Positions 30,201 through 54,703 of a stretch of DNA of 64,000 bases are shown one piece after another. Numbering within the stretch: position 1 is the first letter of the stretch; each line of letters begins with the position of its first letter. The position numbers were made by a program, and so were the translations under genes. Origin of the DNA: Pseudomonas phage Baskent_P6; sequence record PQ415074.1; one strand, given 5' to 3'. A model generated the notes under the pieces. That model was given only the letters and a program-made list of their open reading frames with translations. It searched no databases and was not told the origin of the DNA.

Positions 30201-33200
30201 AGGCCGCGCGGCGTGCTGGCAAAGAGGTTCCAGGCTGAGGCCCAGGCCCGCGCCGAATACTTCACCCCCGGCAACGTGGTGCGAGGTTACGGCGCCAACT
30301 ACGACAGGGTTATCAGCTACAACCCGACCGAATCGGGAAGCTGGACCGTCACGGTGCGCAGTGTACGCAAGGAAGGCGACACCTGGGTGGATGTCCCGGG
30401 CGAGAGCGAGCGCACTCACATGACGGCGCCGGATGCGCGCGACATGAAGCGCGGCCCGGCCGGCCGTATCGCAACACAGGGGGCGCCAACCACCGATGAG
30501 TTCCCCTTGAAGGAAGCCGCCGCCAGCTACTCCGGTATCTCGAACAGCAGCAGCCAGCGAGCGAAGTCCGATGCGGATGAGTTCCAGACCTACATCGACG
30601 TGGCCCGCGACGCGGGCGCTGTCGTGGCGCGCACCGATGCTCAGCAGGCGGCCGTGGAGCAAGCCACACGAGAGTTGCGCGCCGATTACCTGGCCCAGTA
30701 CCGACGCCTGATGAACGTGCGCGCCGGCACCTACAGCGGTTATGTTGTCGGGCGTTCTGGACTGAACAGCAAGCAGGCGGACAGGCGCAACAGCGCCTAC
30801 GACCGCGCCATCGACACATTCGTGGCCTGGCAGAAGGCCAATCAGGATCGCGTGCGCCAGGCGGCCCTGGACGCCCGTACCGACGAGGAAAAGGCGGCAG
30901 ATCGCCAGGCCGCCGAGCAGGCCCGCGCCGACAAGGCGCAGCGCAAGGAAGACGGGGACCGCAGCCTGATGCGCAGGATTCTGTCCTGGAAGAAGGGCAG
31001 CGAGCCGGTGGCGATCACCAAGGCCGCGCACCTTGCCGGGGTGAACTTCGGCAAGGATGGCTACCCGACCAGCATTAAGTTGACGCCGACCGATGGCAGC
31101 GTGCTGACCAGCGACAAGTTCGACCTGGCGGCGCTGTTCCGTGAGCGCGGCATGAGCGTGCCGGAGTCGAAACGCCGCGTGCGTGAACTGGTCGATTTCG
31201 TGCGCGCCGAGGATGCAGCCCGGCCCCAGTCCGAACCGGCAGAGGCACCCAAGCCCGAGCCCGCGCAGCCCAGCGATTCTAAAACCCCGACGCTCGATGC
31301 GCATGTAGCCCTGATGCAGCGCGCGCGCAGTGGGGAGGCGACCGCCGACGAGTTCCGCCAGGCATTCGAGCGTACGCAGAACGCCCGCGACGCCCTGGTG
31401 GCCGAGCTGGGCACTATGAAGAAGGATGACCTGCTGAAGTCAGGCGGCTACAGCTTCTTCCACCGCTACCGCAACGAGAAGAAGGCAGCGATTGTCGATG
31501 CCCTGGTCGGTCGCGTGCTGGAGGAATTTGCGCTGGGCCGCAGCTACGGCCCGAGCAGCTACGTGATGTCGGCTGCCGGCCTAGAAGCGCACCGCCAGGC
31601 CAAGGCCAGCGCGCTGGCCGAGCTGGTGGCGAACACCACCGACGACGACATCAAGGCGCACGCCGCCGAGGTCGCCGAGGCGCAGCAGGAAGTCCAGGCT
31701 CGCCGGGAAGCGCAGCAGAAGGCTGTCGCCAACCCGCAGACCCTCGCCGAGTTCCGCCAGGCAGTGAGCTACAACATGGAGACGCACGGGGAGTCCCTGC
31801 GGGAGGCGTTCATGCGCCTGACGCCGGAACAGCGTATTCGCTACGACGAACTGGAGGCCGAGAGCACTAAGGCCCTGCGTGAGCAGGCCAAGGCACAGGC
31901 CAAGACCCGCGTAGCCAGCGCCGGGCAGACTACGGCCGGCGACATCATCGAGACGAAGCACACCAAGCACGGGCATGACCTTTTCGTGGTGCAACTGGCC
32001 GAGCGCGTCAGCCGCGAGGACTACGACACCCTGAACAATTCGGCGAAGCGGCTGGGCGGCAGCTACAGCAGTTACCGTGGGAATGGTGCTGTCCCCGGCT
32101 TCCAGTTCCGCACCCGCGAGGCGGCCGAAGCATTCCGCAAGCTGGTGACCGGCGACACCGCCGACGCGCAGGCCGTTGCAGAAGCGCGCCGCGACGCCTT
32201 CGAGGATGACCGCAACCAGAGCGCCGCCCAGCGGCTGCGCACCATGGCCCAGGCTCTCAACGAGCGGGCCGATGATTCCCTGAGCCGCGTACGCAAGCAG
32301 AACACCGATCGCCGTGCGCGGATGGCCGCCAGTGCCGAAGCCTCGGCGCGCGCCGACAAGGCACTGGCCGCCACCATGAACAACCTGGCTGCCGCCATCG
32401 AAGGCGGCAAGGCGAAGTTCCTGGACACCGTGCGGCAGAAAGTGCAAGTGGAGTTCCTGGCGCGGGAACTGCGCAATGCAAAGGACGCGCAAATTCGAGC
32501 GAAGTACCCGACTTATGGCGAGCAGGAGAAACACCGTGGCGAGCCGGTGGACGCCGAGACGGTGGACTACTCCACATTCCCCAGTTACACCGCCATGCGC
32601 TCCGACTTGGCGAGCCTGGCGCGCCAGATGGCGGAAGTGGACGGCCTGAAGAAACTGGCCGCGCGCCTGGAGAAGGTCGCCGACGATGTGACCGAGGCCT
32701 ACACCGGCTGGGCCAAGCAGAACCTTCTGTCCGTCAGCCGCTTCACCCGCGGTGACCAGTTCGCCGACTTTAAGAGTCGCGAGGATGCTGAGCGTGCCAT
32801 TCGCCGCTCCGGCCTCACCGGCAAGGCCATCGTGCTTCCGGTGAAACGCGGGCAGAACCGCATCGTCATGGCCCCCAGCGAAGCCATGAAGCTGGGCCTC
32901 TGGCAGGGCGACGGCGACAAGCGCATCACGCTGTCCGGCGAGTTCGGGGGCGAACTGGTGCAGGCCCTGGGCCGGCGCAGTGGCAGCAAGATCACCGTTC
33001 CGTGGGCGCTGGAGAGTGCGCACGAAAAGCGCAAGCGCCTGGAGAGCATGGGCATCCTCACCGGCAGCGAGTACCGCTCTGCACTGCGCGAGTTCGTAGC
33101 GCTGCGCGAGGCGCCCGCCGAGCCGGATAAGATCAAGCAGATGGAACGGGCGATGATCGGTCGTCGCAATGACGGCCTGGACTTCTTCCCAACCTCGGCC

Positions 33201-36200
33201 GCCGTCACCGAGGAAGCCATCGACGCCGCCGACATCCAGGGAGGCATGGACGTGCTGGAGCCTTCCGCCGGCATGGGCCATATGGCCGACGCGATCCGCG
33301 AGCAGACCGGCGTGGAGCCCGAAGTGGTGGAGCTTTCCGGAGAACGCCGCGAGTTGCTGGAGGCCAAGGGCTACAACCTGGTCGGATCCGACTTCATGGA
33401 GGTGTCCGGCAAGCAGTACGACCGTATCGTGATGAACCCGCCGTTCTCCAAGGGGCGCGACATCCAGCACGTACAGCACGCCTACAGCCTGCTGAAGCCC
33501 GGCGGCCGCCTGGTTGCCATCATGAGCGAAGGCGCCTTCTTCCAGAGCAACAAGGCCGCCGAGAACTTCCGTGCCTGGCTGGACGGCCTGGGTGCCACCA
33601 GTGAACGGCTGCCGGAAGGTTCGTTTATGGACCCAGCGCTATCCGTCAATACCGGCGTGAACGCGCGCATGGTGGTGATCGACAAGCCGGCAGCCGAAGA
33701 GTCGGCAGCGCCGCAGCCCGGCGAACAACCGCCTGTGCAGTACTCGTTCACCGGACGCAATGCCGTCGGCGCCAACCTGCATGCCCTGAGCACCGCGCAG
33801 CAGCGCATCGCCATGGGCGAAAACGCCGAGGCCGTTCGTCGAGATACCGGCTGGCACCGCGGCACTGATGGCAAGTGGCGCTTCGAAATCAGCGATCATC
33901 AGGCCAGCATCGCCGTGGCCGGTGAGACTGCTGGCGCCATCATCGATATGGCCCACCTCAATGCCATCAACGACGAGCGTAGTCGACCGACTGTAGGCGA
34001 TGTGCTCAGCCATCCTCAACTGTTCGCTGCATATCCTGACCTGCAGCGTATCCCGGTGGCAGTGATGCCAGAGGGCGTCACTGCGCTGGCTCGCCTACGC
34101 CGGTTCGCCACTGGTAACCAAGTTGAGGTTCAGGCGAACATGCCGCGCACCGAGGTTGCCTCGGCGATCCTGCACGAACTCCAGCATGCGATACAGATCC
34201 GGGAAGGTTTCGCCATGGGTGGCTCGGCCAGGGCTTTCGTCAGCAACTTCGACAAGACTGGTGCGGCGACCTATCGTCGTTTGGCTGGAGAGGTGGAGGC
34301 GCGCAACACGCAGGCTCGTCTGAAAATGACGCCGCGCCTGCGCCGGGACATTGCACCCGATGAGTCGGCGGACATCCCTGCAAGTCAGGTGCTGGTGTCG
34401 TTCAATGGCCGCGACATCGAGAATGGCCCGTTGCCGCAGAACCTGACGGGGCGTCCGCCGATGACCTCGCACAGCCTGGTGCGTGCTTTCGACCTGCAGT
34501 TCCCAGCCCTGGGCCAGGCTGTGCGCAAGATGCTGAAGCGCGGCAAGGAAGGACAACGGGGCGGCTTGGTGGTGATCGACAGCGCCGACCCGTTGCGCAT
34601 CGCGCACACCTACGCGCGGAAATCCGGTACCGCACTGAGCGATGCCGTTCAACTGTTTGAGGATGGCGAGCGCATCAATGGCTTCTACGATGCCAGATCA
34701 GGTCTAACTTTTCTGGTCGGCCCGAACCTGAATCCGGTAACCGCCCCGGCCGTGGTGCTTCACGAAATGGTTCACGGCCAGCAGCGACAGAATCTCGACC
34801 AGGCTGCCCACGCCATGCTGATGAATCGCGGCAACGTGCGGAGCGCCGAACTGCGCACCTTCCTGGACCGTGTGGCCAGCCGCATGATCGAGTCCGGCGA
34901 GAGCCGCAACATGAAGGAGGCCGCTCCGTATATCGTGGAGCAGGCTGTTATTGAAGGGCGAGAGCAGGGATTCGCCGAGGCTGATAGCCGGTTCCTGTCC
35001 TGGGTAGACAGTGCGCTGGGCAAGCAGGTGGGTGACTTCCTGCGTAGGTTCCTGGCCAACATCCGTCAGTGGATGCTGCGCCACGGTCTGCCGGTTGGCC
35101 GCATCAGCGTGGACGATCTGGTGCGATATGCGATGGCTGGTGTGGAAAGCGCCGCCGAAGGCCGGGTACGGGGCGACGGCCTAGCCATGAGCCAGGACGA
35201 CATGCGAAAGGCGCGCGTGCTGCAAGGCCCGCCGGTGGCCATCCTGGAGGGGAATGAAGCACCACAGGGCTTCGCTGCGGTTCGCGAGTGGGCGGCGAAG
35301 CTATTCGAGTCTCAAGGTGGCAAGGCAGTGAACCCGGACCTGGGCGACGTGGTGCTGGATATGCGCGCTGTGCGCGACTCGATGGCGCATGGCAAGGCCA
35401 ACCCATACAAGTTCTCGGCGTTCGCGGCCGTCAAGGACGTGCTGGAGCGAGGTGTGGTGGTTCACCGCGCGGACTATGAGAAGGGGGAGAGTTTCTACGT
35501 GTCGGCGCCGGTGGTGATCGACGATAAGGATGACATCGTGACTGTGTTGGTGCGCCGCGATCCGAACATGCAGCGCATGTATCTGCATTCGGTGGCCACA
35601 AAAGAATATCTCCTGAACCGTCGAGTATCCGGTGCTGATGCCATGATGGCAGCGCAGCCTTCCGGCTCGTCCAGTTCAGGAGACGTAGCCAGTGTACTCC
35701 AGCGGCTGCTGACCGCAAGCCTGAATGAACCCGAAGGTCCGCAGTTCAGTCGCTCCGGTCTGCGCGAACTCACCAGCAAGGCTACCGCCGAACTGAACAA
35801 GACCTTCAGCGCTCCGGGAGGCCTGTCCTGGTGGCACAAGACCATCGGCACCATGTACAACCTCGCAGAGCGTTCCCCGGCATTCAAGCCGGTCTTCGAG
35901 TCGGCGCAAGGATTTATCGATGACGTGAGCTATTACGCCAGCGATGCGGCTGATCTGGCGCCGAAACTGCTGCCGAAGCTGGAAACCTGGCGCGACATTG
36001 CAAAGTCCCCGGTGGGCGCTGAGGACAACAAGGCGGTGGCCAAGCCGGTATTCGAGGGCACGCTGATGTGGGCGCGCGACGTGGACGGCAAGCCGGTGCG
36101 CGTCGATTCGCTGGCTGAGCGCGCCATGCGTCTGACGGCCGACGAGAAGGCGGACATCCTGCTGAAGCAGGGCAAGATTCCCGAGGGACTGCTGCGCGCC

Positions 36201-38648
36201 TGGCGCGGCCTGAGCCCCGAGCAGTTCGCGAAGATGATCGACAGCCGCTACGAGTCGCAGATGCTCAAGGCAGGCATCGTCTGGACCGACGCTGAGCTGC
36301 GCGACATGTGGAAGCTCAACGATGCGCAGGTCGCGCTGTACCGCGAGTTCCGCGCCGCCACCGACCGTAGCCTGGACACCATGGCCCGCGCCGACATGCT
36401 GCGCTTCGGCGGCGAGGATGTGAAGGAACTGCGCGACCAGGTGATGGACGCGGCCGATGCGCAGGAGGGGGCCGCGATACTGCGCGACCACCTGGCGCAG
36501 ATGGCTGATGCATGGCCGGAACGCGCCACGAACCTGCTGAACCTGGCACACGGCATGACGGATCGCGCCGAGAAGGTCGCCCAGTTGCAGGGCGAGGGCT
36601 ATGCACCGCTGTCGCGCTTCGGCAAGTACACCGTGGATGTGGTGGACGCGAACGGCGAGCGCCAGTATTTCAGCCTGTTCGAGACCAAGCGCGAGGCGAA
36701 CCTGATGGCCGAGCAGATGCGCGGCGCCTTCCCTGGCGCCACCGTCAGTCAGGGCACGCTGTCCGAGGAAAGCTACAAGCTATTCGCCGGCATCACCCCG
36801 GAAACCCTGGAACTGTTCGGCAACGCCCTGGGCTTCGACTCGGAGGGCGACAGCGCCCGCGACCAGGCGTTCCAGGAATACCTGCGCCTGACCAAGACCA
36901 ACCGTTCCGCGATGCGCCGGTTGATCCACCGCAAGGGCATCGCCGGCTACAGCGAGGACGTGGGCCGCGTGTTGGCATCGTTCATCTACTCCAACTCCCG
37001 GCAGACCGCCGCCGGCCTGCACATGGGCAACCTTTCCGAGGCTGTGAACGGCATCCCACAGGCGCAGGGCGAACTGAAGGACGCCGCGGTACGGCTGGCC
37101 GACTACATCAAGAACCCGCAAGAGGAGGGGCAGGCGGTGCGCGGACTGCTGTTTGCGCAGTACCTCGGCGGGTCCGTCGCGTCAGCCTTCGTCAACATGA
37201 CCCAGCCGGTCCAAGTGACTTTTCCCTGGTTGAGTCAGTATTGCGGGGTGAAGCGCGCTGCGGCGGAACTGGGGCGGGCAGCACGACAGATGGCGCAGCG
37301 CTCCTATCAGTTCGAACCGGACCTGGCCCGGGCATTAAAGCGCGCAGAGGATGATGGGGTGGTGTCCCCGCAGGAGGTCCACCAGTTGATGGCGCAGGCC
37401 CGCGGCAGCGGCTCGCTGCGCGCCGGGGACGGGACGCGCTTGGGTGATGCTCGAGCACTTGCGTCCAACAGCGTGGCGCGCCTGTCGATGGCCTGGGGCA
37501 AGTTGTTCGGCGCCGCAGAGCAGATCAACCGCCGCATGACTTACATCGCGTCGTATCGCATCGCCAAAGCGCAGAACATGGCCAATCCTGACGAGTTCGC
37601 ACGCCGGGCCGTGCGCGAGACGCAGTTCGTATACTCCAAGGCCAGCAAGATGCGCTGGGGGCGTGGTGCCGTCGGCGGCACCTTGATGACCTTCAAGACG
37701 TACAGCGTGGCCTATCTTGAGCTGATGCATCGCTTGTGGAATCAGGGTGAGCCTGGTTCGCAGGAGCGCAAGGACGGTCGGAAGGCTGCTGCCCTGATGA
37801 TCGGCATGCTGCTGCTCGTCGGCGGCGCCGGTGGCTTGCCGTTCGCCGAAGACGCCGAAGACCTGATCGACGGTGCGGCGCAACTCATGGGCTACAACTT
37901 CTCTACCGCGAAGGCCAAACAGGAGTTTCTGGAAGGTCTGTTTGGTCGGGTGCTTGCCGACTTCATTGATCGCGGGGTGTCCGGACTGCCTGGTGCTCCG
38001 CTCGATGCCTCAGGCCGGCTGGGCATGGGGAACCTGATTCCTGGAACCCGGCTACTCCAGCCCGCCCCCGCGAATATTCGCGATGTGCTTGAAATAGCTG
38101 GCCCCATGGGGGACTTCGCGAATCGCATCCTTGAGGGCGGGAAAAAGATCGCCAGTGGCGACATCGGTAGCGGGTTGCTGGAAATATCCCCGGGGGCGGT
38201 ACGAAACGCTGCCAAGGGTGTGGATATGCTCGCCACTGGGATGTACCGAGACACGAAGGGCTACAAGGTCTTGGATACCAACACGCTTGAGGCCGCGATG
38301 AAGATGATCGGTTTCCAGCCTGCCAGTGTGGCGACCATTCAGGAAGCCAACATGCTCAGTCAGAAGGCGAAGGCCTTCTACAACCTGAAGGCGCAAGAAA
38401 TCCGCAGTATGTGGGCGGCCGGCATCTTCGAGAAAGACCAGGGCAAGGTTGAGCGCGCGCGGCAAGCAATAGCCGACTGGAATCGGCGCAACCCTGACCA
38501 GCCAATGGCCATCCGAGTGCCAGACATCATGCGACGAGTCCGCGAAATGTCGCTATCGAAGGACGAACGGATAGCGAAGACCGCACCGAAAGCGATGCGG
38601 CAGCAGATGCGAGAGGATCTGGAGCGCACCCGCGCAGCGCTGGACTGA
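27300..38648 (+). CDS. Giant polyvalent protein (3782 aa): ParB-like domain + N6-adenine-type MTase domain + two HExxH zincin motifs + long helical C-terminal region
   Basis: Single uninterrupted ORF with RBS AGAGGA. ParB/Srx-like segment ILVSREGNVLDGHHQWMAARDNGEEVRVIRLD (about nt 29,900-30,060). MTase motif I VLEPSAGMGHMADAI (about nt 33,245) and motif IV NPPF (about nt 33,440). HExxH motifs HELQH (about nt 34,175) and HEMVH (about nt 34,760). The six-frame ORFs on the opposite strand are R-rich junk. Confidence 0.8.
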   Translation: MADTWGENDKIVDTADFGANDEVVGKGEEGRGVIGHARDLGLSVAKGVIGVPEAAVGLADIPTEGRVGKFLENQDGMLGFRPREAKDFLSDLHTDQYKQQQQDFQDADGVVDKTLHAVQNPSMVVNTVAESLPSMLAGGAVGRGVRALAPALAPVAAGAAGEGAVMAGQQAEQIRQETDDGLLTPAQSGAAVATGVLGSLFSLAGGSLAKKLGIGDADTLLAGGANPGQLVSELASMPAKSIPRKVIEGAISEGFLEELPQSASEQVLQNLALGRDWASGLDEAMVMGTLAGMAMGGPAAVLHGGQPAASRGLADADATFESTPGLEGQTETTAPLALPAPVYEAGSDGQVRTTVDQNSATQAQRQQEAERLDRIRRGEVTDVTPVPAAPKRSEQMGLDPAVGPLSGAAAQAVDSGATDQMVQQAALQQAAEEAQKSGRKGDQVNPETGEITAEQGDLLASDPVTDLQGRLEFVRRQARATGWDAKKIAERDRLQEELDKLAPAPDAGYMQRVGERVKRIEAAQSPDEIAAILAEDQQDEQRHQNAAGRVELAARARGFALDQAAQQQAPTPIGVQDDIQQAQGKADAQQAQAAQPAVSLAPAAESVPAAPATEAKATNLKDAISKVRQAKQKPEQPAALQAVRRGEVGGKLGSGEVVTTSSGRQTTPFPKVSVDSSRKATSTIKAVDQWLMQNALDEARSRGDEFNARQFEANLAKPQRADKDAAEEYLFGQQPAVQPRVLKPLAPKSTATDNSASWVIRNKETGEVIAETFDRKKVDALNTEKYEAVPIQQHLASLNKPKVPSIEGKDIGEGWAEFSKESGTVGIPRADMPQIKAEHRGAMVNFLSARGVQHQEETVPADTLKPTQAEFSRDKVAKAKDFEGGNRSILVSREGNVLDGHHQWMAARDNGEEVRVIRLDAPIRDLVKLAHEFPSSTTDASSGQGATVDARQVRPVPEPAAPDVPKKRPRGVLAKRFQAEAQARAEYFTPGNVVRGYGANYDRVISYNPTESGSWTVTVRSVRKEGDTWVDVPGESERTHMTAPDARDMKRGPAGRIATQGAPTTDEFPLKEAAASYSGISNSSSQRAKSDADEFQTYIDVARDAGAVVARTDAQQAAVEQATRELRADYLAQYRRLMNVRAGTYSGYVVGRSGLNSKQADRRNSAYDRAIDTFVAWQKANQDRVRQAALDARTDEEKAADRQAAEQARADKAQRKEDGDRSLMRRILSWKKGSEPVAITKAAHLAGVNFGKDGYPTSIKLTPTDGSVLTSDKFDLAALFRERGMSVPESKRRVRELVDFVRAEDAARPQSEPAEAPKPEPAQPSDSKTPTLDAHVALMQRARSGEATADEFRQAFERTQNARDALVAELGTMKKDDLLKSGGYSFFHRYRNEKKAAIVDALVGRVLEEFALGRSYGPSSYVMSAAGLEAHRQAKASALAELVANTTDDDIKAHAAEVAEAQQEVQARREAQQKAVANPQTLAEFRQAVSYNMETHGESLREAFMRLTPEQRIRYDELEAESTKALREQAKAQAKTRVASAGQTTAGDIIETKHTKHGHDLFVVQLAERVSREDYDTLNNSAKRLGGSYSSYRGNGAVPGFQFRTREAAEAFRKLVTGDTADAQAVAEARRDAFEDDRNQSAAQRLRTMAQALNERADDSLSRVRKQNTDRRARMAASAEASARADKALAATMNNLAAAIEGGKAKFLDTVRQKVQVEFLARELRNAKDAQIRAKYPTYGEQEKHRGEPVDAETVDYSTFPSYTAMRSDLASLARQMAEVDGLKKLAARLEKVADDVTEAYTGWAKQNLLSVSRFTRGDQFADFKSREDAERAIRRSGLTGKAIVLPVKRGQNRIVMAPSEAMKLGLWQGDGDKRITLSGEFGGELVQALGRRSGSKITVPWALESAHEKRKRLESMGILTGSEYRSALREFVALREAPAEPDKIKQMERAMIGRRNDGLDFFPTSAAVTEEAIDAADIQGGMDVLEPSAGMGHMADAIREQTGVEPEVVELSGERRELLEAKGYNLVGSDFMEVSGKQYDRIVMNPPFSKGRDIQHVQHAYSLLKPGGRLVAIMSEGAFFQSNKAAENFRAWLDGLGATSERLPEGSFMDPALSVNTGVNARMVVIDKPAAEESAAPQPGEQPPVQYSFTGRNAVGANLHALSTAQQRIAMGENAEAVRRDTGWHRGTDGKWRFEISDHQASIAVAGETAGAIIDMAHLNAINDERSRPTVGDVLSHPQLFAAYPDLQRIPVAVMPEGVTALARLRRFATGNQVEVQANMPRTEVASAILHELQHAIQIREGFAMGGSARAFVSNFDKTGAATYRRLAGEVEARNTQARLKMTPRLRRDIAPDESADIPASQVLVSFNGRDIENGPLPQNLTGRPPMTSHSLVRAFDLQFPALGQAVRKMLKRGKEGQRGGLVVIDSADPLRIAHTYARKSGTALSDAVQLFEDGERINGFYDARSGLTFLVGPNLNPVTAPAVVLHEMVHGQQRQNLDQAAHAMLMNRGNVRSAELRTFLDRVASRMIESGESRNMKEAAPYIVEQAVIEGREQGFAEADSRFLSWVDSALGKQVGDFLRRFLANIRQWMLRHGLPVGRISVDDLVRYAMAGVESAAEGRVRGDGLAMSQDDMRKARVLQGPPVAILEGNEAPQGFAAVREWAAKLFESQGGKAVNPDLGDVVLDMRAVRDSMAHGKANPYKFSAFAAVKDVLERGVVVHRADYEKGESFYVSAPVVIDDKDDIVTVLVRRDPNMQRMYLHSVATKEYLLNRRVSGADAMMAAQPSGSSSSGDVASVLQRLLTASLNEPEGPQFSRSGLRELTSKATAELNKTFSAPGGLSWWHKTIGTMYNLAERSPAFKPVFESAQGFIDDVSYYASDAADLAPKLLPKLETWRDIAKSPVGAEDNKAVAKPVFEGTLMWARDVDGKPVRVDSLAERAMRLTADEKADILLKQGKIPEGLLRAWRGLSPEQFAKMIDSRYESQMLKAGIVWTDAELRDMWKLNDAQVALYREFRAATDRSLDTMARADMLRFGGEDVKELRDQVMDAADAQEGAAILRDHLAQMADAWPERATNLLNLAHGMTDRAEKVAQLQGEGYAPLSRFGKYTVDVVDANGERQYFSLFETKREANLMAEQMRGAFPGATVSQGTLSEESYKLFAGITPETLELFGNALGFDSEGDSARDQAFQEYLRLTKTNRSAMRRLIHRKGIAGYSEDVGRVLASFIYSNSRQTAAGLHMGNLSEAVNGIPQAQGELKDAAVRLADYIKNPQEEGQAVRGLLFAQYLGGSVASAFVNMTQPVQVTFPWLSQYCGVKRAAAELGRAARQMAQRSYQFEPDLARALKRAEDDGVVSPQEVHQLMAQARGSGSLRAGDGTRLGDARALASNSVARLSMAWGKLFGAAEQINRRMTYIASYRIAKAQNMANPDEFARRAVRETQFVYSKASKMRWGRGAVGGTLMTFKTYSVAYLELMHRLWNQGEPGSQERKDGRKAAALMIGMLLLVGGAGGLPFAEDAEDLIDGAAQLMGYNFSTAKAKQEFLEGLFGRVLADFIDRGVSGLPGAPLDASGRLGMGNLIPGTRLLQPAPANIRDVLEIAGPMGDFANRILEGGKKIASGDIGSGLLEISPGAVRNAAKGVDMLATGMYRDTKGYKVLDTNTLEAAMKMIGFQPASVATIQEANMLSQKAKAFYNLKAQEIRSMWAAGIFEKDQGKVERARQAIADWNRRNPDQPMAIRVPDIMRRVREMSLSKDERIAKTAPKAMRQQMREDLERTRAALD

Positions 38649-47330: not shown

Positions 47331-48089
47331 TCAGGTGAAGAGGGTGGGCTGGGCGCTCTTGTCCAGCGACTGCTGGATCTTGGTGAAGGCCTCGGGGTGC
47401 TGCTGGTCGAACGCTGGCATGCGGGGCGACTCAACCCAGGTGCCGCGCTCGGCGCCCTTGTCGAGCCAGGATCGTGTCCAGTTCGTCGCGCTGACGCCGC
47501 ATTCGGCGATCTGCTTCGTGGTGATGAAGCCCTGGCGGCGTAGCGTGGCGATCACCTTCAGCGCGCCTTCCTTCCATTGGGTGAGCCGCAGCGGAGCCGG
47601 AACGCCGGCGGGCACGTCGGGGACCACGATCGGGACATGGCAGCGTTCCGCGGGGTTCCAGTCGAAGATGTTGGGCTCGTTGAAGTGCTTGACCCAATGG
47701 GATAGGCCGAAGTCGGGCCCTTCGACGTAACCCCCGTTGCGTCGCACGTAGCCACGGTGCGGCGCAAGAACCGCTACGCCGCACATTTCAAGCAGGCGCG
47801 CGATTCTGTGGCTGGCCTCGGTGATCCGCCCGACAATGACCAGGCGGTGATCTGGCCCGGGCGCCCCGTACCGGTCCTGCCAGTACTGCGGCAGGATCTG
47901 GTCGGCCACCTTGGCGTTCAACTGCAGCTTGGCCTCGACGCCGATCTGCCGGCCATCCTCATGGACCACCAGGATGTCGAACCCTGCAGTCTCCGGGTAG
48001 CAGGTCCAGCCAGGGACTCGGTTGAACTCGTCGATGAACGCCGCGCAGAGTTCGGCCTCGCTCTGCACCAGCGGGGCCTGGCTCTTCAT
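47331..48089 (-). CDS. Putative PD-(D/E)XK-fold nuclease, 252 aa
   Basis: Start MKSQAPL with RBS GGAGA; E...FDILVV...GVEAKLQ resembles a D-(x)n-E-x-K nuclease core. Confidence 0.4.
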   Translation of the reverse strand: MKSQAPLVQSEAELCAAFIDEFNRVPGWTCYPETAGFDILVVHEDGRQIGVEAKLQLNAKVADQILPQYWQDRYGAPGPDHRLVIVGRITEASHRIARLLEMCGVAVLAPHRGYVRRNGGYVEGPDFGLSHWVKHFNEPNIFDWNPAERCHVPIVVPDVPAGVPAPLRLTQWKEGALKVIATLRRQGFITTKQIAECGVSATNWTRSWLDKGAERGTWVESPRMPAFDQQHPEAFTKIQQSLDKSAQPTLFT

Positions 48090-48385
48090 GTCGGTATCTC
48101 CGCAGGACCGGTGATGTGCTCCGCGTGCAGAGCGCGCATTCCCAGCCTGGCGCCCTTCGAATCCATCCAGCCGGGCAGCAGGGCGATTGCCTGGCAGGTG
48201 AGCAGCTTCTGCAGGTCGAGCCGCAGGTAGTCGGCCCACTCGAAGCCCGGAATCTCGCCGTGCTCGGCGGGGTTCTCGACCTGGTACCCGAGGCTGCGCA
48301 GGCGCGCGGCTTCGGCGTGGAACGCGGGGAAGTTGTGTTCCGGCAGGCCGGTCATGGGGCCGGCGAGGTAGATGCGCTGGGTCAT
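48086..48385 (-). CDS. DUF4406 / nucleoside 2-deoxyribosyltransferase-like small protein, 99 aa
   Basis: MTQRIYLAGPMTG N-terminus (the YLAGPM signature); about 100 aa; RBS CAGGAGG; ATGA coupling on both sides. Confidence 0.5.
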   Translation of the reverse strand: MTQRIYLAGPMTGLPEHNFPAFHAEAARLRSLGYQVENPAEHGEIPGFEWADYLRLDLQKLLTCQAIALLPGWMDSKGARLGMRALHAEHITGPAEIPT

Positions 48386-49248
48386 TCTCCGCGCGCCTCC
48401 TGAATATCGGCCTCGGTCAGGGTGTAACTGGTAACCCCGTCGACGAGATAGAAGTCCGGCGGGCAGTTCGCCCTGGCCCAGCCGCGCAGGAAGCTTCCCA
48501 GGTCGGCCATTGCTTCCTTGCTGGCCTGCGGCCAGTCGTCCACCCATTCCCCGGCATCGCTGCAACTGGCGTTGTCGTTCATGCTGCTGATCAGGCTGTC
48601 CGGATCGACGAAGCCAGCGGGATCGAGGTAGCGCTTCGTTCCGAAGTACACGGTGGAGCCTGCCTGCAACTCGTCGTAGCTGGTGATGAGTTCTGAGAGA
48701 TCCTCGTTGTGCCAGTCCTCTCCGTTGGCGCTCCAGGTGATTTCCCCTGACCGTGGATCGCTGTAAGCGACGGCCGGAGCATCCCCAGTGCGGTCGTGCT
48801 CGATCGCCTTGTCGACTGGCACCGTGCGCCAGTCCGGCCAGGTGCGCGCCTCGTTCTTCGTCTGCTTGGCGACCAGGGCTTCGATGATCTGCGCGGGAGT
48901 GGCGCCGGTGCGCCAAGCCCCGTCCAGGGCCAGGATCACAACGTCGATCCACTCGGCCAGGTCGCCAGGGTTCTCCTCGATCTCGCGCAACTCCTTCCGG
49001 ATGTGGTCGACGACGCCAGCGGCGCGCGACCCAGGCCCGAACGTGCGTTCGCTGAAACGGCGCTGGCGCTCCAGGTGCAGGTCGAGACGGAACACGTCCA
49101 GCCGCCCGCGGGCGCGGCCAAGCGCGTAAGCCTCGTCCTGGAACATCAGGAGGTGATCGCTGGTGCGTCCGGTCAGGACATTGAGATAGCGGCTGTGGAG
49201 CGCCTCAATTGCAAGATGATCGTCGGGGTGGTTCTGGTTCGTCGTCAT
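48382..49248 (-). CDS. MazG-like nucleotide pyrophosphohydrolase (DUF550-type) N-terminal domain protein, 288 aa
   Basis: HIRKELREIEENPGDLAEWIDVVILALDGAWRTG resembles the MazG/DUF550 EExxE metal-binding helix pair. Confidence 0.45.
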   Translation of the reverse strand: MTTNQNHPDDHLAIEALHSRYLNVLTGRTSDHLLMFQDEAYALGRARGRLDVFRLDLHLERQRRFSERTFGPGSRAAGVVDHIRKELREIEENPGDLAEWIDVVILALDGAWRTGATPAQIIEALVAKQTKNEARTWPDWRTVPVDKAIEHDRTGDAPAVAYSDPRSGEITWSANGEDWHNEDLSELITSYDELQAGSTVYFGTKRYLDPAGFVDPDSLISSMNDNASCSDAGEWVDDWPQASKEAMADLGSFLRGWARANCPPDFYLVDGVTSYTLTEADIQEARGE

Positions 49249-49688
49249 GGCTGCACCTGCTGCTGTGAGCGGTTCCAGGGATGCCGGCGCCCGGGCTTGG
49301 GCTGCTGGCGCGGGGTGATGAGGGCGTCGCGCAGGCTCATGCCGGCGGCGACGCGGCGGCGGACGGTCGTTGCGTGGACCGGGCTCTGGAAGTGCTCCAC
49401 CAGCTCGGCGATGGTCCCGGTCACGCCGTCGACGGTGAAGCGTCGGCTCTCGCTCCAGCGTTCGTGCGCGCGCTCCAGCGCTGCGGCCTGCGCCGGCGTG
49501 CAGCGTCCGCGCTTCTGCTCGTTCGCACGCTGGTGGTCGGTTGAGCATCCGCGTGCTGGCCAGGTGATCTCCGGCATCAGGGTCAGCAGCTCTCGGAACT
49601 TCCAGGGGCCCATGCCGAGCGCGTGCATGGTGGCGCGCCGGGAAAGCCCGCGCGCGGCCGCGTTGCGAATGAACTGTTCGGTGTTCAC
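49245..49688 (-). CDS. Hypothetical HTH-like protein (about 147 aa; GTG start with strong RBS GGAGG)
   Basis: GTGA overlap with the stop of the C5-MTase gene; alternative ATG at 49628. Confidence 0.4.
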   Translation of the reverse strand: MNTEQFIRNAAARGLSRRATMHALGMGPWKFRELLTLMPEITWPARGCSTDHQRANEQKRGRCTPAQAAALERAHERWSESRRFTVDGVTGTIAELVEHFQSPVHATTVRRRVAAGMSLRDALITPRQQPKPGRRHPWNRSQQQVQP

Positions 49689-51493
49689 GGGTTCACCTCC
49701 TGTTGCGCGACGCTCAACCCCACCGCTACCTGCCGCACCCAGATCGGCGTATTGCTGAGCATGAAGGTTTCGCCGGCCTCGGCCAGCAGCAGCGTTGTAC
49801 CCATCACGCCGGCGATGGCCTCGGCCGCGGCCGGCGGTACGGCGTTGCCGATGCGCTCGCGCCAGTCGCTGTCGCTCAGGCCGTCGAGGATCAACTGTTC
49901 TTCCGGGTCCACCAGGCTCTGCAGCGCGGCCAACTCCAGGGTGGTGAAGGGCCGGTGCCAAGTGCCGTCCAGCGACTGGATGATGCAGGTGAGCCGGTCG
50001 TTCGCCGTCGGCATGCGCGGGTCGGCGACGCTCCACCGGCCATTGTCGTGCCGCGCGCTGGCGGATACTGCGCCGGCGGACTGGTCGAACCCGACGACAC
50101 CGTAGTGCCCGCCGGTCAGGTAGGCGTCGCCCTTGGTGCGATCGAGCACGCGCGGATCAGCGATCGACAGCGCGCCGCTGGCCACCTGCTGGGAGCCGGT
50201 GACCGTGCCGGTAGCGCTTCCCCACTCGCCGACGTGCAATTTGCGGCTGCTCGCCCCTGGGTGCCAGTTGTGGTACCTGGGATCGGCAACAGCCTGGCCT
50301 CCGGAACTGGGTGAGTGCCCGCCGGTGACGGTTCCGGCGTGGCTCCCCATGCTGACGACGCGAAACACGTTGTTGTGCCGGACGCCGCCTGGGCGCGGGT
50401 CGGCGACGCTGAATGTGCCTTGGCCTGGCATCGTTTGCCCTGGGATAGTCGGCGCTGATTCGGCCCAGCGGATCACCCCGAACTGCTGGCCGTGGTTCCA
50501 GTTTGCGGCTTGGCGGTAGCGAGGATCGGCTACCGAAAATGCGCCGTTGGTAGGGCCGGAGCGGCCGGCGATAGTGCTGGCAGTGTCGTCCCACCCATGC
50601 ACCCCCATGTAGCCGGAGCGGTACTCCGGCACGATTACCAGGTCGCGCAGGTGGCCGTCCTCGATCGCCAGCTTGTTCAGGCTCCGCCAGTCGCTGCCGG
50701 CCTCTACCAAGGCCAGGCGCACCCAGGTCTTCCAGTGCAGCGATGGGATGCGGTGCATTGGCCCCGCGGCATCGATGTCGCCCGGCAGCGGCATGCGGCC
50801 GAGGATGTCGCCGACGGCGCGCAGGCTCTTCTTCTCTGGCTCGTACAGGAAGGGGGGCACTTTTTCGACGTGCCGCGCGACAAGCAGGAAGCGCTTCCGG
50901 GACTGCGCCAGGCCGCCGAGTTCGCCGCAGTCGTGAGTGGTTTCCGCCACTGCGTAGCCGAAGCCGCCGAGCAGGCTATTGATCTGGTCCAGCAGGTGCC
51001 GGCCGCGGCTGGCAAGGCGTGGGACGTTCTCGAAGACGATCAGCGGTACCGGGTCATCAGCCCATGCCTCGCCCATCAGCCAGATGCAGCGCAGCGTCAA
51101 CTCGTTCAGCGCCTGGTACTTTGGAGTCAGGCTCATCTTCTCCGACAGCAGGCCGCTGGCGCCTTTGCAGGGCGAGCTGATGAACACGGCATCCGGCCGG
51201 CGCCCGCCGGCGGCGCGACGAATATCCTCCGGAGTCGCCTCCCGCCAACCGGCGGGCGGCTCCTTTCCATGGAAGCGGATGTATTGGTCGCGGGTGAACA
51301 GGTCCAGCAGGGTACCCGGGACACCGGCCAGGCGCTCGAAGTCGCGCAGGCCGGCCGGGTCCACGTCGATCCCGCCGAGGCAGACCCATTCAGCCTCGAC
51401 GTTGCCGACCCGCGGGCGCGCCCGGTTGAAACCGGCGGCGCCGCCGCCCAGGCCGCAGCAGAAGTGGAAGTGGTACAGAGTGCGCTTGATCAT
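49685..51493 (-). CDS. DNA (cytosine-5)-methyltransferase, 602 aa
   Basis: Motif I FCCGLGGG; motif IV SSPCKGASG (catalytic Cys); motif VI FENVPRL; motif VIII QSRKRFLLV; RBS AAGGAA. Confidence 0.85.
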   Translation of the reverse strand: MIKRTLYHFHFCCGLGGGAAGFNRARPRVGNVEAEWVCLGGIDVDPAGLRDFERLAGVPGTLLDLFTRDQYIRFHGKEPPAGWREATPEDIRRAAGGRRPDAVFISSPCKGASGLLSEKMSLTPKYQALNELTLRCIWLMGEAWADDPVPLIVFENVPRLASRGRHLLDQINSLLGGFGYAVAETTHDCGELGGLAQSRKRFLLVARHVEKVPPFLYEPEKKSLRAVGDILGRMPLPGDIDAAGPMHRIPSLHWKTWVRLALVEAGSDWRSLNKLAIEDGHLRDLVIVPEYRSGYMGVHGWDDTASTIAGRSGPTNGAFSVADPRYRQAANWNHGQQFGVIRWAESAPTIPGQTMPGQGTFSVADPRPGGVRHNNVFRVVSMGSHAGTVTGGHSPSSGGQAVADPRYHNWHPGASSRKLHVGEWGSATGTVTGSQQVASGALSIADPRVLDRTKGDAYLTGGHYGVVGFDQSAGAVSASARHDNGRWSVADPRMPTANDRLTCIIQSLDGTWHRPFTTLELAALQSLVDPEEQLILDGLSDSDWRERIGNAVPPAAAEAIAGVMGTTLLLAEAGETFMLSNTPIWVRQVAVGLSVAQQEVNP

Positions 51494-54120
51494 GCGGCGG
51501 GTTCCTTATGGATAATGTCGGCCTCGGCCTCGAGCAGGGCGAACAGGTCGGGCATGGCCATCTCTTCCTCGGCAGACTTGCAATAGCCGGCACCGTCCAG
51601 GAAGTAGCGGGAGTTCAGTTCGTGGGCGCGGGCTCTGCGCTTGAGCTTCAGCGCGCAGTACGGGACGGTCATGATCCCGCCGAAGGGATCGAAGACCAGG
51701 TCTCCTTCCATGGAGTACTGCACGATGGCCCGGTCGACGATGTCGAACTGCAGCGGGCACAGGTGCATTTCCTGGCCCTTGCTGTACTGCTGGGCGTTGA
51801 GCGTCCGCATGCGGGCGACGTCGGTCCATACGTCCGGGTGCCAGGACTGCGGTGGCAGCAGCATGAAGCCGGTGGGCAGCTTCCCGGTGACCTCCAGCGA
51901 TTCGCCGATGCGGACGTGGTGCTCGAAGTCGTAGACGGTGGACAGGCTGTAGTCGCGGTACAGCTTGAACATCACGTCGTGCGGAATGCCTTCGAAGTCC
52001 GCTTCAGTCAGCGGACGGTTGCCGTTGCTGCGGGTGAAGCCGTGGGCGTCCAACTGCCAGCGTGCCCGGCTGTAGCCGTTGCCGCGGGTGACGGTGAGCT
52101 TCTTGTCCATGGCGAAGGGGACGATCTGGCCGTCTTCGTCGATGCACAGGGGCTTGGCCTTGACCACCGGAATGTCGCCGTAGGCGTTGGAGTTGTCGGT
52201 GGGGGGCTTGCGGAAGATCAGCAGGTACTCGGGCATGCCGACACCCATCTTGGTGCCGTCCTTGCACTGTTCCGTCCACGAGAGGCGGTAGGTCTGGGCG
52301 TTCTCGCGAACCACGTCGGTGACGATGGTCTTCATGCCCATATAGGCCCAGCCATGCTTGACGAAGGCTCGAGTCACTTCCATGTGGAAGGGGTAGACGG
52401 TCTGGAAGCCAAGGCCGGTCATTCCGCCGGGAATGATGCGATCCTTCACGTGGATGCAGGCCAGACGCCCGGGGATGGTCACGCGCAGCAGTTCCGGGAT
52501 CAGATAGTCCATCTGCTCGAAGAAGTGCGCGTTGTCGTCGGTGTGGCCGAAGTCGGCGTAGTTCGGCGAGTACTCGTACTGGGTGCTGAAGGGGATGCTG
52601 GTGATGGTCAAGCCGACGCTGTTGCTTTCCATGCGGCAGGTTTCGAGCACGGTGTCGTTGTTGACGATGGTGTAGTCCTTGCCCTTGATCTCGACGCGCT
52701 CCACGCCCATGGAGCGGGTGAGGGTCTGTGCCATGGCGGCCACGGACAGGCCGTACTGCTTGATGATCTCGGTCATGCGCTGAACCATGGTGTTGTGCTG
52801 CTGCCACTTCCGTTCGAGTTGGCGGCGGATGTCGCGCTCGGCCTCGGTATAGATCAGGTCGATGCGCACACGGCCTGTCTGCAGGAATCGGTGCAGGCGG
52901 TGAATGGACTGGATGAAGTCGTTGAACTTGAAGCCGATGCCCAGGTAGATGGCCCACGAGCAGTGGCGCTGGAAGTTGCAGCCGCTGCCTGCGATCACTG
53001 GTTTGGCAGCCAGTTCCTGGAACTCGCCGTCGCTGAACTGGACAATCGCGCGCTCGCGCTCCTCCAGATCCTGGGCGCCGTAGACGCTGATGGCGGTGGG
53101 GATAGCGGCCTCGATCGCGTGGCGTTCCGCCTCGAGGTCATGCCAGATGATCCGGTGAGCATCTGGAGCCTCGGCCCGGATCTCCATCAGTTTGGCGATC
53201 CGGGCAGGAAGGCTCTCGCGCTTCTCTGCGGCGGCGTCCTGCACGCCAATGGCGGTGTTGCGAAGCAGGCGGCCCTGGCCGTTACGCTCATGGCCAGCGT
53301 GCGAGTGGTCGGACGGTACTTCGTGCCAGCGGATGTCCAGTTCCGGTAGCGCGTAGCCTTCGTCGCTGAACCCGAGGTCGCTGGGGCGCTGAACGAAGAT
53401 CGCCCAGGATGCCACCCACATCCAGAACTCGCCCTCTTTGTGGGCATGGATGGTGAGTTGGTCGGCCTTCTCAGAGTTGCGTTTGAAGAACCTGGTCTTG
53501 GCCTGGCCGACATCCATCACGCCGAGGAAGGCCGAGTAAGCCAGTAGCTCGATGTATTCGTTCGGGCTTGGCGTGGCAGTGGCCACGTACCGGTACCGGA
53601 CGCCATCGCCGCGGACGCCGGCGGCGCGATCGTCACCAGCGAACAGAGCCATGAACTCGCGGAACGTCTTGCTGCCGCCGAAGCCGCGAAGGCAACTGGC
53701 TTCGTCCAGGCTTGCCACGCTGAACCGGCGAGGGTCGAGCTTGCCGTCGCGGACGGTCTCGTAATTGGTCAGGTAGATGGTGGCGGGGTCGTCTACCTCG
53801 TCGAAACTGCGGATGAACCGGACGGTGATGCCGAGCATCGCGGCGTCGCGGTAGAACTCCTGGCGCACACCCAGCGGAATGGTGATGAGAGCGTAGCCGC
53901 CGGCTAGGTCGCGGGTGACGCGCACCACCTCAAGCTGCATTACCGACTTGCCCAGGCCGAAGGCCGCGAAACAGGCCGCGCGGCCTTGGCGCACCAGCCA
54001 GGTGGCGATGGCGCGCTGGTGCGGCTTGAGCAGGGGGTTGAAGGCCGAGGGCTCCACTTCGAAGCCTTTCGGCTCGGCGAGGCGGACCTTCGCTCGCAAG
54101 AAGTCTTCATAGGCGGTCAT
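51490..54120 (-). CDS. SNF2/DEAD-like helicase fused to a C-terminal DNA MTase-like domain, 876 aa
   Basis: Walker A AAFGLGKS; DEAS box SLDEASCLRG; motif VI IQSIHRLHRF; C-terminal DPFGGIMT (MTase motif I-like) preceded by RKPPT; start at MTAYEDF, ATGA-coupled to the C5-MTase. Confidence 0.7.
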   Translation of the reverse strand: MTAYEDFLRAKVRLAEPKGFEVEPSAFNPLLKPHQRAIATWLVRQGRAACFAAFGLGKSVMQLEVVRVTRDLAGGYALITIPLGVRQEFYRDAAMLGITVRFIRSFDEVDDPATIYLTNYETVRDGKLDPRRFSVASLDEASCLRGFGGSKTFREFMALFAGDDRAAGVRGDGVRYRYVATATPSPNEYIELLAYSAFLGVMDVGQAKTRFFKRNSEKADQLTIHAHKEGEFWMWVASWAIFVQRPSDLGFSDEGYALPELDIRWHEVPSDHSHAGHERNGQGRLLRNTAIGVQDAAAEKRESLPARIAKLMEIRAEAPDAHRIIWHDLEAERHAIEAAIPTAISVYGAQDLEERERAIVQFSDGEFQELAAKPVIAGSGCNFQRHCSWAIYLGIGFKFNDFIQSIHRLHRFLQTGRVRIDLIYTEAERDIRRQLERKWQQHNTMVQRMTEIIKQYGLSVAAMAQTLTRSMGVERVEIKGKDYTIVNNDTVLETCRMESNSVGLTITSIPFSTQYEYSPNYADFGHTDDNAHFFEQMDYLIPELLRVTIPGRLACIHVKDRIIPGGMTGLGFQTVYPFHMEVTRAFVKHGWAYMGMKTIVTDVVRENAQTYRLSWTEQCKDGTKMGVGMPEYLLIFRKPPTDNSNAYGDIPVVKAKPLCIDEDGQIVPFAMDKKLTVTRGNGYSRARWQLDAHGFTRSNGNRPLTEADFEGIPHDVMFKLYRDYSLSTVYDFEHHVRIGESLEVTGKLPTGFMLLPPQSWHPDVWTDVARMRTLNAQQYSKGQEMHLCPLQFDIVDRAIVQYSMEGDLVFDPFGGIMTVPYCALKLKRRARAHELNSRYFLDGAGYCKSAEEEMAMPDLFALLEAEADIIHKEPAA

Positions 54121-54139
54121 GCTGTTTCCTTGAGGAACG

Positions 54140-54222: not shown

Positions 54223-54313
54223 TGGAAGAGAAAGCGCCCCGGGTGGGGCGCTGTATCGAGGGTCAGGTCGCAGCCTGGAGCTGGTGACCACGACCTAGAG
54301 GAATAAACTGAGC

Positions 54314-54341
54314 TTGAAATGCAGATCGATTGCCCTAAAAC
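54314..54341 (+). promoter_or_regulatory. Candidate sigma70 promoter for the moron (TTGAAA-16-TAAAAC)
   Basis: -35/-10-like hexamers about 50 nt upstream of the RBS of 54389..54703. Confidence 0.3.
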
Positions 54342-54388
54342 TCGATGGTGAAGTCACGGTGCTATTACTTGACCAACTAGGGGGATCT

Positions 54389-54703
54389 ATGCCTATCAAG
54401 ATGAATCTGTCTGGCCTGAAGCGTCTGCAGCAAAACCTCAAACAACTCGATGGCACGCATCAAGTGCCGTTTAGCGAGATCATGAGTCCCAGCTTTATTT
54501 CGTCTAACAGCAAGTTTGCGAATTTCGACGAGTTTGCTCGTGGTGCCGGTTATAAGGTTGAAACTGCGGAAGATCTACGGGCGATTCCAGACGAGCCATG
54601 GGACGCTTATGTCCGTAGTGAGACTCCTTTCGAGAGTTGGGCAGAAATGCTCAAGGCCGGCATAGTCGCGCATGCCAAGCGCTCACTTCAAAAGGGGTTG
54701 TAA
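54389..54703 (+). CDS. Low-GC moron protein (104 aa), opposite orientation to the surrounding operon
   Basis: RBS GGGGGA; GC about 50% versus about 63% for the flanks; own promoter-like and terminator-like elements. Confidence 0.5.
   Translation: MPIKMNLSGLKRLQQNLKQLDGTHQVPFSEIMSPSFISSNSKFANFDEFARGAGYKVETAEDLRAIPDEPWDAYVRSETPFESWAEMLKAGIVAHAKRSLQKGL

Follow-up and report, generated by a model that had tools for sequence, protein, structure and literature searches.

We analysed a 64,000-nucleotide stretch of DNA from Pseudomonas phage Baskent_P6 (sequence record PQ415074.1; the window), in which two adjacent minus-strand genes encode DNA-modification enzymes. Gene A specifies an 876-amino-acid (aa) fusion of a Snf2-type ATPase with a beta-class amino-methyltransferase, and gene B specifies a 602-aa C5-cytosine methyltransferase with a tandem array of modules in its variable region. 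The best-supported reading, to which we give a slightly better than even chance, is that the pair carries out lytic-phase self-methylation that protects phage DNA from host restriction. An earlier annotation made from the sequence alone (the first-pass annotation) had given the coordinates of the region and the ATGA coupling of gene A to gene B. Both are as it described them, and the two open reading frames (ORFs) lie on the minus strand. The motifs it quoted were all located (GLGKS, DEAS, QSIHRLHRF and DPFGG in gene A; FCCGLGGG, SSPCKG, ENV and QxRxR in gene B), and its assignment of a Snf2-type ATPase joined to an amino-methyltransferase and followed by a C5-methyltransferase is borne out by Pfam, PHROG and Foldseek. 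The two genes are largely an ordinary, correctly read example of a known and widespread kind. Their additional value lies in the altered active-site motifs of gene A, the module array of gene B and a common family that is functionally uncharacterised.

Gene A contains the following features (window positions; (-), minus strand; motifs were located in the translation unless another basis is given).

51490-54120 (-): gene A, 876-aa fusion of a Snf2-type ATPase and a beta-class amino-methyltransferase (ORF, Pfam, PHROG, AlphaFold with Foldseek)
54126-54131 (-): AAGGAA, Shine-Dalgarno-like, 5 nucleotides upstream of the gene A ATG at 54118-54120 (sequence reading)
53311-54120 (-): Snf2 ATPase lobe 1, aa 1-270 (invariant motifs and Foldseek matches to Snf2 ATPases)
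53944-53958 (-): lobe 1 Walker A, GLGKS, aa 55-59
53695-53706 (-): lobe 1 DEAS, aa 139-142
53560-53580 (-): lobe 1 motif III, TATPSPN
52741-53238 (-): Snf2 ATPase lobe 2, aa 295-460 (invariant residues, weak Helicase_C match, Foldseek)
52885-52911 (-): lobe 2 motif VI, QSIHRLHRF(LQ), with QSIHRLHRF at aa 404-412
51535-52635 (-): beta-class amino-methyltransferase domain, aa 496-862 (PF01555 above cutoff, alignment to TTHA0409)
52588-52602 (-): methyltransferase motif IV, T-S-I-P-F (aligns to TSPPY of TTHA0409, PDB 2zie)
51784-52200 (-): insert of about 130 aa between methyltransferase motifs VIII and X, aa 641-779 (long subfamily only)
51748-51765 (-): methyltransferase motif X, HLCPLQ
51676-51690 (-): methyltransferase motif I, DPFGG, aa 811-815 (aligns to DPFAG of TTHA0409)
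51616-51627 (-): methyltransferase motif II, acidic residue in AHEL

The Pfam searches that the first-pass annotation had proposed gave a divided result. N6_N4_Mtase (PF01555) matched gene A with 35.1 bits (cutoff 26.7) over aa 504-840, spanning profile positions 3-216 of 221, and DNA_methylase (PF00145) matched gene B with 41.5 bits (cutoff 22). The helicase models stayed below threshold in gene A: SNF2-related gave no match at E ≤ 0.1, and Helicase_C scored 15.2 bits, below its cutoff of 23.5. NCBIfam returned generic matches only, all sub-threshold. The Snf2-type label therefore rests on the fold and motif VI. Foldseek searches with the AlphaFold model of gene A (mean predicted local distance difference test score, pLDDT, 71.5) returned the Snf2 ATPases Mot1, ISWI, INO80 and RapA as the best PDB matches (E about 1e-13), and Snf2 remodellers together with RapA filled the top ~30 PDB positions (E 4e-14 to 3e-12, probability 1.0). 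Motif VI reads QSIHRLHRFLQ (...RFGQ in relatives) and fits the pattern Q-x-x-x-R-x-x-R-x-x-Q. PHROG 16 ('DNA helicase') matches the full length of the protein (aa 4-875, E 1.1e-131). The ATPase residues G55-K58, D139-E140-A141, T181-A182-T183-P184, Q404, H407, R408 and R411 are invariant in 46 homologs, and the motifs are also kept in the actinophage, cyanophage and Flavobacterium phage versions.

Motif IV of the gene A methyltransferase lies N-terminal to motif I, and the order IV ... X-I-II is that of the beta class. The structure check suggested for the C-terminal domain came out in its favor: this part of the gene A model matches the beta-class methylase TTHA0409 of Thermus thermophilus (PDB 2zie/2zif) in Foldseek. 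TTHA0409 is the closest solved relative of the domain (family profile E 2.6e-15), and its motif IV and X-I-II segments align with gene A. It differs from gene A as a stand-alone 297-aa protein with a canonical TSPPY, no ATPase and no 130-aa insert. The 46 homologs show no variation at S508, P510, F511, D811-P812-F813-G814-G815 or the motif II Glu. Measured against the canonical motifs (D/N/S)-P-P-(Y/F/W) and F-x-G-x-G, gene A reads S-I-P-F and F-G-G-I-M, with other residues at the first Pro and the last Gly. The ATPase and methylase active sites look intact, and the methylase domain is probably active because its catalytic-motif residues are invariant. By analogy with known enzymes, the Ser in motif IV mildly favors N4-cytosine over N6-adenine as the target. 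Beta-class enzymes carry a target-recognition domain between motifs VIII and X, and by position the ~130-aa insert of gene A is a putative target-recognition domain; AlphaFold models it with low confidence.

The first-pass annotation could not place the fusion in a described family. That was wrong because gene A is deposited and labelled and the coupling of its two activities has been described. The protein is 100% identical to CDS QBI82356 of phage vB_Pae_CF24a, and identical copies in public databases belong to a cluster of 481 sequences named 'DNA methyltransferase'. By its full-length profile match gene A is assigned to PHROG 16, a very large and highly conserved phage family ('DNA helicase/methylase'). 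More than 8000 clusters at 90% identity match gene A, with ~70% identity in Burkholderiales. Homologs occur in 323 phage records, many of them labelled 'DNA helicase/methylase' and 294 of which cover at least 80% of the protein, and identity is 66% to a Pseudanabaena cyanophage, ~50% to Mycobacterium cluster F/N and Arthrobacter phages and 41% to Flavobacterium phages. The Mycobacterium and Arthrobacter homologs carry the annotation 'DNA helicase/methylase'. Coupling of SWI2/SNF2 ATPases to adenine methylases, within a single polypeptide or a shared neighborhood, is widespread in phages and plasmids (Iyer et al. 2017, PMC5512222). The PHROG 16 relatives Charlie gp56, Richie gp78, Pan5 gp57 and the phi297 'DNA methylase N-4/N-6 domain protein' are collinear with gene A over the full length and 50-66% identical to it. 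They share the Snf2 lobes, TSIPF, DPFGG, the ~130-aa insert and an early recombination/replication context, and no substantive difference separates the family from gene A. No experimental work on the helicase/methylase family was found in the literature searched. A 933-aa GTG-initiated ORF is an unlikely gene A product, as the near-identical vB_Pae_CF24a record annotates the 876-aa form.

The methylase domain divides the family into long and short subfamilies. The long subfamily (gene A, Charlie gp56, Richie gp78, Pan5 gp57 and FCOV-F46) has T-S-I-P-F, a motif I of the form D-P-F-G-G-(I/L)-x-T and the ~130-aa insert. Canonical S-P-P-F and F-(A/G)-G-I-G-S are retained in the short subfamily, which consists of VK42, S-CBS3 and, in Emma-like cluster F phages, split helicase and methylase genes. 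The canonical motifs of these short and split relatives indicate a methylase ancestry for the gene A domain. Some homologs contain inteins of ~320 aa with Hint/LAGLIDADG Pfam matches, among them P0047 at Cys788 within methylase motif X (HLC|PLQ) and P0074 at helicase motif III; the equivalent window positions are ~51757-51759 and ~53560-53590. Inteins usually target conserved, functionally important sites such as methylase motif X and helicase motif III. The gene A homologs of mycobacteriophages Squirty, Dante and Tootsieroll have an insertion of ~330 aa, annotated as ribonucleotide reductase in two of the three. In Pan5 (L004, 3764-7538) the homolog is annotated 'restriction endonuclease EcoP15I, modification subunit' and is preceded by a 290-aa C5-methylase and an 'AbaSI-like' endonuclease gene, a different order of the methylase pair. 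The 'AbaSI-like' gene is a possible modification-dependent nuclease.

Gene A had been likened to DarB of phage P1, and the likeness is limited. Both join a DNA methylase and a SWI2/SNF2-clade ATPase in one mobile-element polypeptide, and the proposed role is the shielding of the element's own DNA from restriction (PMC5512222). The DarB-type dyad consists of LPD36 and an EcoKI/TaqI-like adenine methylase N-terminal to the ATPase in a polyvalent, virion-packaged protein (Iyer et al. 2017, PMC5512222); DarB exceeds 2000 aa and acts in cis on injected DNA (PMC5512222, PMC12707154). Gene A, by contrast, has the ATPase first, a beta-class PF01555 methylase, 876 aa and a location in an early operon, between RdgC/SSB/exonuclease and integrase rather than among morphogenesis genes, and neither Pfam nor PHROG found LPD domains in it. 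The domain order, methylase class, absent LPD domains and genomic position rule out DarB homology, and the 'DarB-like logic' of the first-pass annotation falls with it.

Type ISP restriction-modification enzymes have an SF2 translocase N-terminal to an amino-methyltransferase and a recognition domain and couple ATP-driven movement to site recognition. Gene A resembles them in having a translocase N-terminal to an amino-methyltransferase in one polypeptide. Type ISP enzymes also carry an Mrr-like nuclease at the N-terminus; their ATPase is HsdR-like (Type I) and their methylase gamma-class, whereas the gene A ATPase is Snf2-like and its methylase beta-class. Pfam, PHROG and PADLOC matched no nuclease family in gene A, and the ATPase motifs start within the first 60 residues, which does not fit the Type ISP layout. 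A place in a defense system was likewise rejected. PADLOC gave generic methylase models and, for DISARM class 1, a marginal DrmD match (E 0.0017, aa 347-482) with no DrmMI match, and the neighbors are phage recombination genes.

Gene B overlaps the end of gene A and contains the following features.

49685-51493 (-): gene B, 602-aa C5-cytosine DNA methyltransferase with a modular variable region (PF00145, PHROG 116 and 32684)
51490-51493 (-): ATGA, the gene A TGA stop overlapping the gene B ATG (sequence reading)
50759-51493 (-): N-terminal catalytic core, aa 1-245
51440-51463 (-): motif I, FCCGLGGG, aa 11-18
51161-51178 (-): motif IV, SSPCKG, aa 106-111, with catalytic Cys109
51023-51031 (-): ENV, aa 155-157
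50891-50905 (-): motif VIII, QSRKR, aa 197-201
50015-50650 (-): five tandem modules of 39-45 aa, aa 282-493 (repeat analysis)
49769-49969 (-): C-terminal core, aa 509-575
49919-49957 (-): motif IX, HRPFTTLELAALQ, aa 513-525, starting HRPFTTLE (513-520)
49832-49849 (-): motif X, GNAVPP, aa 549-554

An AAGGAA sequence lies 6 nucleotides upstream of the gene B ATG. By its motifs, gene B is assigned as a C5-cytosine methyltransferase with the complete canonical set. Residues P108, C109, E155-N156-V157, R199 and R201 are invariant in 42 diverse homologs, and H513, R514, P515, T517, G549, N550 and P553 are invariant or nearly so. The N-terminal core is modelled by AlphaFold with pLDDT mostly 80-96, and Foldseek matches the core to DNMT1, MET1, DNMT2 and M.HhaI. 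Identical proteins occur in P. aeruginosa genomes under the name 'DNA cytosine methyltransferase'.

The module array lies between motif VIII (QSRKR, 197-201) and motif IX (513-525). Every module combines a (G/R)V..W core with a T/A-(I/V) dipeptide and ends in (S/A)(V/I)ADPR, and all share one strong framework with the consensus GRHNGKYGVVPWDEPAGTVTGASGPGNGAFSVADPR (module profile). The gene B family, taken as 505 clusters at 50% identity with E below 1e-30, has members with 0-12 modules at a period of ~40 aa. Single-linkage clustering of the modules at 55% identity merged all of them into one group, and best-match statistics with community detection were used instead; these gave at least 12 recurrent module types. 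For 91.5% of 1084 modules from 175 relatives, the best match was in another protein, at least 15 identity points above any module of the own protein. One type occupied the last position in 104 of its 108 occurrences. Among P. aeruginosa alleles with 86-94% overall identity, whole modules are replaced or inserted, giving the architectures ABCDE (the window), AFCDE, AFGCDE, JFGCDE and AHGCDE. Module types resemble each other more between distant proteins than inside a single protein, a pattern that speaks against recent slippage and in favor of selection acting on every type.

The multispecific C5 enzymes of Bacillus phages (M.SPRI, M.Phi3TI, M.Rho11sI, M.H2I and M.BssHII) are the nearest known parallel. 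Like gene B, they have a single core with contiguous units of ~40 aa between motifs VIII and IX, and the units are assorted differently among related temperate phages. In the SPR, rho11s and H2 enzymes the tandem ~40-aa units are built around xPT(L/I)T and occupy the same position as the gene B modules. The shared features are limited to a pattern of a hydrophobic core, xPT(L/I)T, G-x-G and a hydrophobic A-V segment. There is no detectable sequence similarity between the two sets of units, and the gene B modules have a stronger common framework, ending in (S/A)(V/I)ADPR. Characterised Bacillus enzymes have 3-5 units. The arrays of gene B relatives reach 10-12 units and, unlike those of the Bacillus-phage enzymes, belong to Proteobacteria hosts. 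Tandem target-recognition arrays let Bacillus temperate phages evade many restriction systems (PMC12707154; PMC8936443), and recent reviews cite only Bacillus phages for this strategy (PMC8936443, PMC12707154). No multi-module methylases outside Bacillus phages were found in the literature searched. Alternative target-recognition modules that would make gene B a multispecific enzyme are a well-motivated reading of the array.

The first-pass annotation treated genes A and B as a stacked module. The two are accessory cassettes whose pairing is facultative. The phages phiCTX, Dobby, H66, LKA5, Sinorhizobium PBC5 and Marinobacter PS3 have gene B and lack gene A. LKA5 shares its genus with the window phage; it has gene B and the same flanks, with gene A absent from its slot. 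There (L087, 6911-8321), between the LexA-like gene and the C5-methylase, lie two unrelated small genes on the opposite strand with their own predicted promoters. The gene A slot of LKA5 and the window is a cassette-exchange hotspot. Neighborhoods were counted in 80 related IMG/VR viral loci of gene A, about two thirds of which have no adjacent C5-methylase. A gene-B-type methylase is near gene A in ~8 of the 80, with the same -3 overlap in three (L007, L008 and L025), and a separate ~637-aa C5-methylase family typically lies directly downstream of gene A homologs in 18. These two unrelated C5 families together account for about a third of the loci. The slot beside gene A is a recurrent home for C5-methylases without being part of an obligate unit, and an obligatory A+B module is ruled out, as gene B travels alone and only about one third of gene A loci have a C5-methylase nearby. 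Other recurrent neighbors of gene A are a second canonical Snf2 helicase, DnaB, VRR-NUC, primase, DUF5131 and a PAPS-reductase-like protein. The ~637-aa family (for example L064:6742-8655, L056:9803-12154, L069:9842-12067 and L009:8628-10718, with 14 other IMG/VR loci) has S-P-D-C as motif IV and several xTITx-centred repeats, and some members weakly match the gene B module profile (E 5e-5).

From these features we infer enzymatic activity for both proteins, their target bases and sites, and an anti-restriction role. In the self-methylation reading, genes A and B would be co-transcribed in the leftward early operon. Gene A would act as an ATP-driven, Snf2-type double-strand-DNA translocase coupled to a beta-class exocyclic-amino methyltransferase. 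During induction or lytic replication new phage DNA would be methylated by both enzymes. Gene B would modify several GC-rich restriction sites simultaneously. Gene A would methylate a single host-independent target as its motor travels along the DNA or strips off bound proteins, and progeny genomes would then arrive in the next host with protection against several restriction systems in place.

Several observations weigh against this reading. Replacement of the first motif IV Pro and the last motif I Gly makes the catalytic competence of gene A uncertain. The gene A insert is 46-48% identical among the Pseudomonas, Mycobacterium, Arthrobacter and cyanophage proteins, which is the level of the rest of the protein. 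Because it does not diversify across phyla, the target of gene A seems not to track the host, and an insert of this kind is unlike that of an arms-race anti-restriction enzyme. The neighbors of gene A are recombination and replication genes in all lineages examined. No methylation data for the phage or any family member were found in the literature searched. For aa 287-508 of gene B, AlphaFold with a 46-sequence alignment stayed below pLDDT 50, which makes the model of the module array uninformative in either direction. A hidden Markov model of the modules gave no match to M.SPRI, M.Rho11sI or M.H2I at E ≤ 10. Because of these two results, the target-recognition reading of the modules rests on position, pattern and shuffling, and not on homology or structure.

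The setting of gene A also suits a role mainly in replication or recombination, as a Snf2 fork or branch remodeller or a protein-displacing motor whose methylase-like domain is DNA-binding or regulatory and possibly a pseudo-enzyme. In unrelated phages the gene is always found among RecE/RecT/RusA, exonuclease, SSB, RdgC, DnaB, primase, VRR-NUC or replication-initiator genes. Its conservation across phyla (50% to actinophages, 66% to a cyanophage) includes the putative target-recognition insert, some homologs carry inteins, and motifs IV and I of its subfamily are non-canonical. The invariance of S508, P510, F511, D811-G815 and the motif II Glu is, however, hard to explain for a dead domain. 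One of the inteins sits in the cofactor-binding motif X of the methylase domain, the short and split relatives keep fully canonical methylase motifs, and C5-methylases are frequent next-door genes. Gene A is also dispensable within the genus, as its place in LKA5 is taken by two unrelated small genes; the same absence weakens the case for an essential replicative helicase. We regard this role, the main rival account of gene A, as unlikely.

The low pLDDT of aa 287-508 speaks for a different account of gene B, in which the enzyme is an ordinary C5-methylase of single specificity and the repeats are a flexible or structural spacer, for example for DNA clamping or oligomerisation, whose copy number drifts by slippage or recombination. 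Consistent with a spacer, the module profile has no similarity to the proven target-recognition domains of the SPR, rho11s and H2 enzymes, and every module shares the single GRHNGKYGVVPWDEPAGTVTGASGPGNGAFSVADPR framework. Drift of copy number does not fit the closer kinship of module types between distant proteins than within one (91.5% of 1084), the terminal type fixed last in 104 of 108 occurrences, or the exchange of whole modules for other types between close alleles, which goes beyond copy number. The array also lies exactly where C5-methylases carry the target-recognition domain, and each unit keeps the typical T-(I/V/L) dipeptide. A spacer, the main rival account of gene B, is a minority possibility that we take seriously and nonetheless doubt.

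Many P. aeruginosa chromosomes encode identical A and B proteins in prophages, which would also fit action in the lysogen, either as epigenetic marking of the chromosome or as superinfection exclusion or defense by a DISARM- or BREX-like combination of methylase and Snf2 sensor. A Snf2 helicase and an amino-methylase occur together in DISARM class 1, and in PADLOC the gene A ATPase was weakly similar to DrmD (E 0.0017), as gene B was to DrmMII and DruM. The strong PADLOC matches are generic methylase models only, however, and no nuclease, PLD, DUF1998 or other effector gene is near A and B. The pair lies in the lytic early operon downstream of recombination functions, and gene B travels alone in many unrelated phages. 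Action in the lysogen is improbable on this evidence.

A more ambitious form of the self-methylation reading can be stated. Gene B would belong to a hyper-multispecific family with 1-12 cassettes of at least 12 types, each directing methylation at a different site and reshuffled among prophages. Gene A would be a motor-driven, processive methylase with a host-independent target and the S-I-P-F motif, and the two together would form a broad-spectrum shield. We offer this combination tentatively and expect that it is wrong in at least some part. If it were true, gene B would represent an undescribed, widespread C5-methyltransferase family in phages of Proteobacteria with modules recombined between prophages. 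The array would extend the multi-module principle from a few Bacillus phages to hundreds of Proteobacteria protein clusters, and the family would provide a natural library of ~40-residue DNA-reading cassettes. Such a library could be of use in working out C5-methylase specificity, designing programmable methylases and anticipating the restriction barriers that therapeutic or temperate phages of P. aeruginosa can pass. Gene A has a different significance. Between Actinobacteria phages and cyanophages its family keeps 50-66% identity, and its altered motifs and static recognition region are odd for anti-restriction. This suggests that the DNA metabolism of temperate phages includes a conserved methylation step, which may be processive or structure-directed.

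By sequence, the window is assigned to a temperate Pseudomonas aeruginosa phage of the F116-like (Hollowayvirus) kind. The 4.6-kb region that holds genes A and B shares 99.4% DNA identity with such phages from cystic-fibrosis P. aeruginosa isolates, for example vB_Pae_CF24a. The first-pass annotation placed the pair in the early operon, and the vB_Pae_CF24a gene order agrees: the leftward early recombination operon runs DnaQ-like exonuclease, SSB, RdgC, gene A, gene B and then integrase. Both genes of that phage are on the leftward early strand, with a small LexA-like gene also upstream and hypothetical genes and the integrase downstream.

The megablast match to vB_Pae_CF24a stops at query position 4568 (window 54252), at a terminator-like hairpin upstream of gene A.

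54233-54252 (-): terminator-like GC-rich hairpin followed by a T-rich tail (consensus scan)

The scan found 2 sites where 3.7 were expected in shuffles, which makes it weak on its own. The small LexA-like gene of vB_Pae_CF24a is not seen in the window at 54233-54703. A 129-aa ORF is present there instead on the opposite strand (54314-54703), with PHROG 2211 (function not annotated) as its sole match. The 54233-54703 region, immediately upstream of gene A, resembles a moron cassette that has been exchanged.

Downstream of gene B, the minus strand at 47331-49548 has ORFs of 388 aa (48382-49548), 288 aa and 302 aa (47331-48239), all matching PHROGs without an assigned function. vB_Pae_CF24a has a single 542-aa CDS at the equivalent of 47642-49270, and the separate window ORFs may reflect a frameshift or an annotation difference.

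The first-pass annotation had also reported a third methyltransferase domain in a giant virion protein. A small methyltransferase domain was found at aa 1979-2093 of a 3782-aa plus-strand ORF (27300-38648). This polyvalent protein has Pfam matches to LPD23 (aa 2148-2204) and LPD3 (aa 2660-2761) and a weak N-terminal match to a virion RNA polymerase PHROG. At the C-terminal end it matches a 'DarB-like antirestriction' PHROG, and the 3782-aa protein, not gene A, is the DarB-type candidate of this phage.

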